Positions 20,687 to 20,734 of a stretch of 64,000 nucleotides of DNA are shown piece after piece (position 1 is the stretch's first letter; each line of letters begins with the position of its first letter). A program made the translations under genes and the position numbers. Source of the DNA: Escherichia coli (GTDB lineage: Bacteria > Pseudomonadota > Gammaproteobacteria > Enterobacterales > Enterobacteriaceae); the NCBI RefSeq assembly GCF_017348835.2, contig NZ_CP071375.1; one strand, given 5' to 3'. A model generated the notes under the pieces. That model saw only the letters and a list, made by a program, of their open reading frames with translations. It did no database searches and had not been told where the DNA came from.

Positions 20687-20702
20687 TAACTCTAAAGTGG
20701 TA
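20687..20702 (+). promoter_or_regulatory. Candidate NarL/NarP 7-2-7 site of the nrf promoter
   Basis: taactct-aa-agtggta inverted heptamers, centre 33 bp upstream of the FNR site centre, matching the known -74.5/-41.5 architecture. Confidence 0.55.
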
Positions 20703-20720
20703 TTTTACATGCACTTACAA

Positions 20721-20734
20721 TTGATTAAAGACAA
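20721..20734 (+). promoter_or_regulatory. Candidate FNR site of the nrf promoter
   Basis: TTGATtaaaGACAA resembles TTGAT-N4-ATCAA, about 128 bp upstream of the nrfA ATG. Confidence 0.55.

Follow-up and report, generated by a model that had tools for sequence, protein, structure and literature searches.

The window analysed here, a 64-kb stretch of Escherichia coli DNA, contains a 392-bp intergenic spacer (20470–20861) between acs and nrfA; the question raised by this locus is whether two short motifs within the spacer, at 20687–20734, are sites from which nrfA is controlled, or chance resemblances to degenerate consensus sequences. Judged from its sequence, this region almost certainly constitutes the core regulatory module of pnrf, the promoter of nrfA (periplasmic cytochrome c552 nitrite reductase). 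Both sites, their positions and their mechanism are already known from publications that began in 1994, with refinements up to 2017; the result carries little weight as a discovery, and its value is one of calibration, both sites having been placed to the base from raw sequence alone. What our analysis demonstrates is the identity of the sites with those of K-12, their exact positions, their spacing, the improbability of the arrangement by chance, and its conservation. The features that define the module and its boundaries are as follows.

20469, minus strand: acs start codon (ATG), from translation.
20862–20864, plus strand: nrfA start codon (ATG), from translation and the MG1655 annotation.
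20687–20702, no strand assigned: NarL/NarP 7-2-7 site TAACTCT-AA-AGTGGTA (TAACTCTAAAGTGGTA), centre 20694.5 (−74.5 of pnrf), from the sequence and PMC5434802.
20721–20734, no strand assigned: FNR box TTGAT-TAAA-GACAA (TTGATTAAAGACAA), centre 20727.5 (−41.5 of pnrf), from the sequence and PMC5434802.

The spacer of 392 bp is present in 5413 of 5426 complete E. coli genomes, and in the window it differs from that of K-12 MG1655 by only two SNPs (20649 and 20814), which leave the sites untouched. The first of these, at approximately −120 of pnrf, is a T in the window and a C in MG1655. The K-12 promoter (Tyson et al. 1994; Browning et al. 2002, 2005, 2006; Godfrey et al. 2017) is the same locus as that of the window: the two are identical from the 7-2-7 site to +44, both carry an A at −7, and both contain the divergent promoters acsP1 and acsP2. 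Any function ascribed here to pnrf of the window strain is carried over from K-12, with which it has identical sites in common, and is to that extent predicted.

The FNR box, TTGATTAAAGACAA, agrees with the consensus TTGAT-N4-ATCAA at 8 of 10 positions (two mismatches), and each heptamer of the 7-2-7 site matches TACYYMT at six of its seven positions, the heptamers forming an inverted repeat with 2 bp between them. Both motifs had been noticed in an earlier note on this DNA, with centres 33 bp apart; they can be read directly at 20694.5 and 20727.5, a centre-to-centre distance of exactly 33 bp. A motif scan, proposed there as a check, recovered both sites at ≤2 mismatches, neither being significant alone. 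With the 7-2-7 consensus TACYYMT-NN-AKRRGTA (TACYYMTNNAKRRGTA) and a threshold of ≤2 mismatches, the NarL/NarP site is the only match in the 64-kb window, 2.3 being expected by chance, and the FNR consensus at ≤2 mismatches has 50 matches against 28 expected from shuffles. Either motif taken singly is no better than chance, whereas dinucleotide-preserving shuffling of the 64-kb window (2000 rounds) produced the pair at exactly 33 bp only twice.

Further FNR-like matches with one mismatch are located at 49869, 51574 and 61358 and, if the window is collinear with MG1655, these fall within phn and rdcA coding sequence.

The placement of the sites relative to transcription depends on the start of pnrf, which Godfrey et al. 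2017 (PMC5434802) describe as the single nrf promoter, with one FNR site centred at −41.5 and one site at −74.5 common to NarL and NarP.

20769, plus strand: transcription start (+1, a C) of pnrf, from four anchors in PMC5434802.
20754–20762, plus strand: extended −10 element TGt-TACACA, from mapping of the EHEC SNP, with the TGn motif placed by Salmonella alignment.

Each of the anchors was mapped onto the window separately. The EHEC −10 SNP, given in PMC5434802 as position −7 and as the sole change between EHEC and K-12 within the −10 element, corresponds to 20762 (A to T) in the alignment with an O157:H7 genome; the initiating base in K-12 is a C and +4 is a G (PMC5434802), as are 20769 and 20772, respectively; and the p+102A substitution, which changes an Arg codon from AGG to AGA (PMC5434802), falls on the third base of nrfA codon 3, at 20870. 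All four agree on +1 at 20769, and the site centres therefore lie at exactly −41.5 and −74.5. The layout recognised in the earlier note, that of a class II FNR site at −41.5 with NarL/NarP at −74.5, is thus exact, both with this start and with PMC5434802; the note had made its reading depend on a mapped nrfA start compatible with −41.5, and 20769 is such a start.

The −10 hexamer TACACA occupies 20757–20762 and is preceded by TG at 20754–20755, with the −14 G of the TGn motif (p14C; positioned by alignment with Salmonella) at 20755. The −35 hexamer, ACATTC, is poor and the −35 region is overlapped by the FNR box, as in a class II arrangement. A σ70 consensus scan of 20400–20950 returned no promoter-like site; this is not evidence against pnrf, since weak agreement with consensus is expected for activator-dependent promoters.

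The nrf promoter of EHEC O157:H7 has FNR and NarL/NarP sites, and a spacing between them, identical to those of the window, and differs at −7, where it has T (TACACT) and the window has the K-12 allele A (TACACA) at 20762. The T at −7 confers partial FNR independence and reduced sensitivity to Fis on the EHEC promoter (PMC5434802). The EHEC −10 element is printed as TATACT in PMC5434802, and the aligned O157:H7 genome reads TACACT; the printed form is probably a typographical slip.

The spacer must also hold the promoters of acs, which are transcribed in the opposite direction.

20693, minus strand: acsP1 start, −224 from the acs ATG and inside the NarL/NarP site (PMC2759082, Table 1).
20489, minus strand: acsP2 start, −20 from the acs ATG (PMC2759082, Table 1 and text).
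20605–20618, no strand assigned: second FNR/CRP-like palindrome TTGAAGGTCAGCAA, centre 20611.5, from the consensus scan.

The acsP1 sequence printed in Table 1 of PMC2759082, which ends at the start, is the reverse complement of window positions 20693–20731. The description of the region in the earlier note, as a densely packed spacer of about 390 bp that has to accommodate divergent acs promoters, is accordingly borne out, with a length of 392 bp and starts at 20693 and 20489. The promoter acsP1 is weak, acsP2 being the main acs promoter (PMC5434802, PMC2759082); the former lies inside the pnrf −87 to +10 fragment, and FNR ‘totally represses’ it (PMC5434802). The FNR box is centred at approximately −34.5 relative to the acsP1 start, a position which agrees with this published repression. 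The centre of the second palindrome, TTGAAGGTCAGCAA, falls 116 bp upstream of that of the FNR box and at −122.5 from the acsP2 start, and the palindrome is kept in Escherichia species. It is probably the CRP II site of acsP2, which reportedly has this position (Beatty et al. 2003).

What is said below of protein binding at pnrf, of its dependence on FNR, of the displacement of IHF and of repression by Fis is drawn from the literature (PMC5434802), which for the binding of NarL and NarP cites Tyson 1994, Darwin 1997 and Browning 2002–2006. FNR is reported to be essential, and by itself enough for maximal induction of pnrf, with 5119 units of activity against 54 and 36 in two Δfnr strains (an approximately 100-fold dependence); pnrf is repressed by IHF at IHF I and by Fis at Fis I, which overlaps the −10 element; and NarL/NarP displace IHF from IHF I, which leads to nitrite induction (PMC5434802). 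Transferred to the window, these observations would support the following mechanism. Under anaerobiosis, an FNR dimer would occupy the imperfect palindrome at 20721–20734, centred at −41.5 over the very poor −35 element (ACATTC), and from there bring RNA polymerase to the weak extended −10 element (TGtTACACA), so that transcription starts at 20769. Activation would be held down by IHF, occupying the DNA between the sites, and by Fis over the −10 element. In the presence of nitrite or nitrate, phosphorylated NarP or NarL, bound to the 7-2-7 heptamers at 20687–20702 (−74.5), would displace IHF, giving full induction, and the weak divergent acsP1 would be shut off by the same FNR site at 20721–20734. 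The DNA between the two sites is itself conserved.

20703–20720, no strand assigned: conserved block between the sites, 13 of 18 positions invariant in 25 sequences.

We infer that IHF I, the repressive IHF site, lies in this block. Presumably the block also contains a target of NsrR, reportedly situated there (Browning 2010).

An arrangement of the same kind is found at the E. coli nirB promoter, where a class II FNR site is likewise combined with an upstream NarL/NarP 7-2-7 site that counters repression by nucleoid proteins. The two promoters differ in that nirB drives another operon, has another arrangement of IHF, Fis and H-NS sites, and has a spacing of 28 bp rather than 33 bp, its FNR site being at −41.5 and its 7-2-7 site at −69.5 (Tyson 1994, Browning 2004).

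In vivo data for E. coli are consistent with the positions of the two promoters in the window. Myers et al. 2013 (PMC3688515) report an FNR ChIP-seq peak at 4,285,670, labelled acs/nrfA and assigned to nrfABCDEFG, an operon that they list with one FNR site at −41.5 and place in category 1, direct activation. In Table S2 of the same study, the acs/nrfA region contains a σ70 peak at 4,285,413 that is specific to aerobic growth (534 versus 73) and another at 4,285,698 specific to anaerobic growth (23 versus 401); the aerobic/anaerobic RNA ratio is 0.019 for nrfA and 24.6 for acs (PMC3688515). The two σ70 peaks are 285 bp apart, compared with a distance of 280 bp from the acsP2 start to that of pnrf, a comparison for which no shift of coordinates is needed. 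For absolute positions, we assume a 1977-bp shift between genome versions in carrying the U00096.2 coordinates of Myers over to the window. With this assumed shift, the σ70 peaks would fall at 20488, approximately 1 bp from the acsP2 start, and at 20773, approximately 4 bp from the pnrf start, and the FNR peak at approximately 20745.

Within E. coli the 48-bp module is nearly invariant: 5278 of the 5336 matching records are identical across its length. For comparison over a wider range, species-representative genomes were scanned with a degenerate NrfA peptide pattern, which gave 55 loci, from which a close set (n = 25; Escherichia, Salmonella, Citrobacter and Trabulsiella, with the window counted in) and a distant set (n = 13; Yersinia, Serratia, Providencia and Entomohabitans) were defined. 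Both motifs are exactly 33 bp apart in 24 of the 25 close-set sequences, and in the remaining one the FNR box occupies the same place in the alignment and has a third mismatch. The 7-2-7 heptamers are invariant at 11 of 14 positions across these 25 enterobacterial sequences; the only common variant of the FNR box is G/A at 20730 (−39), where A brings the site nearer to consensus, and the box found in relatives (TTGATTAAAAACAA) matches at 9 of 10 positions. Conservation begins sharply at the first base of the 7-2-7 site and nearly all columns are invariant as far as −33, whereas the DNA directly upstream of the site is divergent in the 25-sequence alignment and contains an indel of approximately 38 bp. 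Since conservation extends over the whole block from −82 to −33, it does not by itself tell the FNR and NarL sites apart from the overlapping IHF, NsrR and acsP1 elements.

The distant set retains the FNR box, and most of its members still have an E. coli-like core promoter downstream. The nrfA promoters of Yersinia, Serratia and Providencia carry an FNR box (TTGATCTAAAACAA, TTGATTAAAGACAA or TTGATCAAAAACAA) with a core promoter after it, which in Providencia and Serratia (GTGTGG...TTGTTA) is clearly similar to that of E. coli. None of the 13 distant sequences has a 7-2-7 site at 33 bp. Five Yersinia loci have instead a perfect or near-perfect 7-2-7 site 99–102 bp upstream, beside a second FNR-like box, and two of the three Serratia loci have one 73–93 bp upstream; within 200 bp, the four Providencia loci have no 7-2-7 candidate with fewer than three mismatches. 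The comparison makes one small addition: the FNR box, like the core promoter, is of old standing, extending out to Providencia, Serratia and Yersinia, whereas a NarL/NarP site at −74.5 is peculiar to the Escherichia–Salmonella–Citrobacter–Trabulsiella group.

One annotated open reading frame overlaps the module and has to be considered as a possible cause of its conservation.

20709–20765 (−60 to −4), plus strand: small ORF ytcB (b4821), 18 aa, from the MG1655 annotation mapped by offset.

That both motifs are functionless chance matches to degenerate consensus sequences would be in keeping with their lack of enrichment when taken singly (50 FNR matches against 28 expected; one 7-2-7 match against 2.3 expected), but the 33-bp pair recurs in so few shuffles (2 of 2000), and the module is so nearly invariant in E. 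coli and over four genera next to upstream DNA that diverges, that we give this explanation practically no credence; conservation, together with the published binding, mutational and ChIP evidence (PMC5434802, PMC3688515), refutes it. The conservation could, in turn, be ascribed to purifying selection on a small protein, YtcB, rather than on transcription factor sites, in that the 18-codon MG1655 CDS spans both the FNR box and the pnrf −10 element. The pattern of variation makes this highly improbable: the ytcB start codon ATG is ATA in 14 of the 25 relatives, the stop codon varies, non-synonymous positions are among the variable sites, and conservation begins 22 bp upstream of the ytcB ATG, precisely at the border of the 7-2-7 site. 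Furthermore, an ORF at −60 to −4 lies outside the pnrf transcript, and among the other E. coli genomes listed no ytcB annotation is present under the match. A literature source for the E. coli annotation was not found, the full-text matches concerning only ytcB of Bacillus, and the ribosome-profiling preprints and small-protein paper that were searched gave no ytcB match.

Granted that the sites are bound, their roles may be apportioned in other ways. The FNR box might be chiefly an operator for the divergent acsP1, with activation of nrfA secondary, and its position at about −34.5 of acsP1 and the total repression of that promoter by FNR (PMC5434802) point in this direction. Such an emphasis is very unlikely to be correct, however, given that acsP1 is weak and acsP2 is the main acs promoter, that pnrf has a complete requirement for FNR (approximately 100-fold), and that nrfA promoters retain the −41.5 geometry, together with the core promoter downstream, even in Providencia, Serratia and Yersinia. 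The two roles of the FNR box, repression of acsP1 and activation of nrfA, are compatible and both are documented. With respect to the upstream site, NarL or NarP at −74.5 could activate through direct contact with RNA polymerase, as a class I-type co-activator, rather than by displacing IHF; an upstream site separated from a class II activator by 33 bp (approximately three helical turns) would suit an α-CTD contact, and the different location of the 7-2-7 site in Yersinia and Serratia indicates that the mechanism may not be uniform. We consider direct contact improbable, though less so than the foregoing alternatives, as FNR alone is enough for maximal induction and NarL/NarP are reported to displace IHF from IHF I (PMC5434802). 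The preferred reading remains that of FNR-dependent activation from −41.5, with NarL/NarP at −74.5 relieving repression by IHF.

Downstream of the start, the transcript begins with a long leader that contains two predicted hairpins.

20769–20861, plus strand: nrfA 5′ untranslated leader, 93 nt, from start mapping and folding.
20778–20809 and 20824–20842, plus strand: two leader hairpins, from folding and comparison across relatives.

Both hairpins are kept in 15 distinct leaders from Escherichia, Salmonella, Citrobacter and Trabulsiella; double changes occur at four pairs, and one-sided changes result in G·U pairs on the plus strand. A scan of the spacer against Rfam gave no match at E ≤ 1. 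CsrA acts on the nrfA leader and start region, and the role of the conserved long leader was termed unclear by Godfrey et al. 2017 (PMC5434802). On the minus strand, the hairpin at 20842–20824 with its adjacent T-run resembles an intrinsic terminator; this was rejected as the main reading, because the one-sided stem changes that are G·U on the plus strand would be C·A mismatches on the minus strand, and the covariation favours a plus-strand RNA. A tentative and rather doubtful proposal is that the leader hairpins form an uncharacterised cis-regulatory RNA element and that ytcB, if translated, would need an unmapped plus-strand transcript crossing the promoter. Were ytcB truly translated, synthesis of this crossing transcript would interfere with, or obey, FNR-dependent control. 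The second of the two SNPs that distinguish the spacer from that of MG1655 is located in the leader, at 20814 (+46), where the window has A and MG1655 has C within an A-rich tract.
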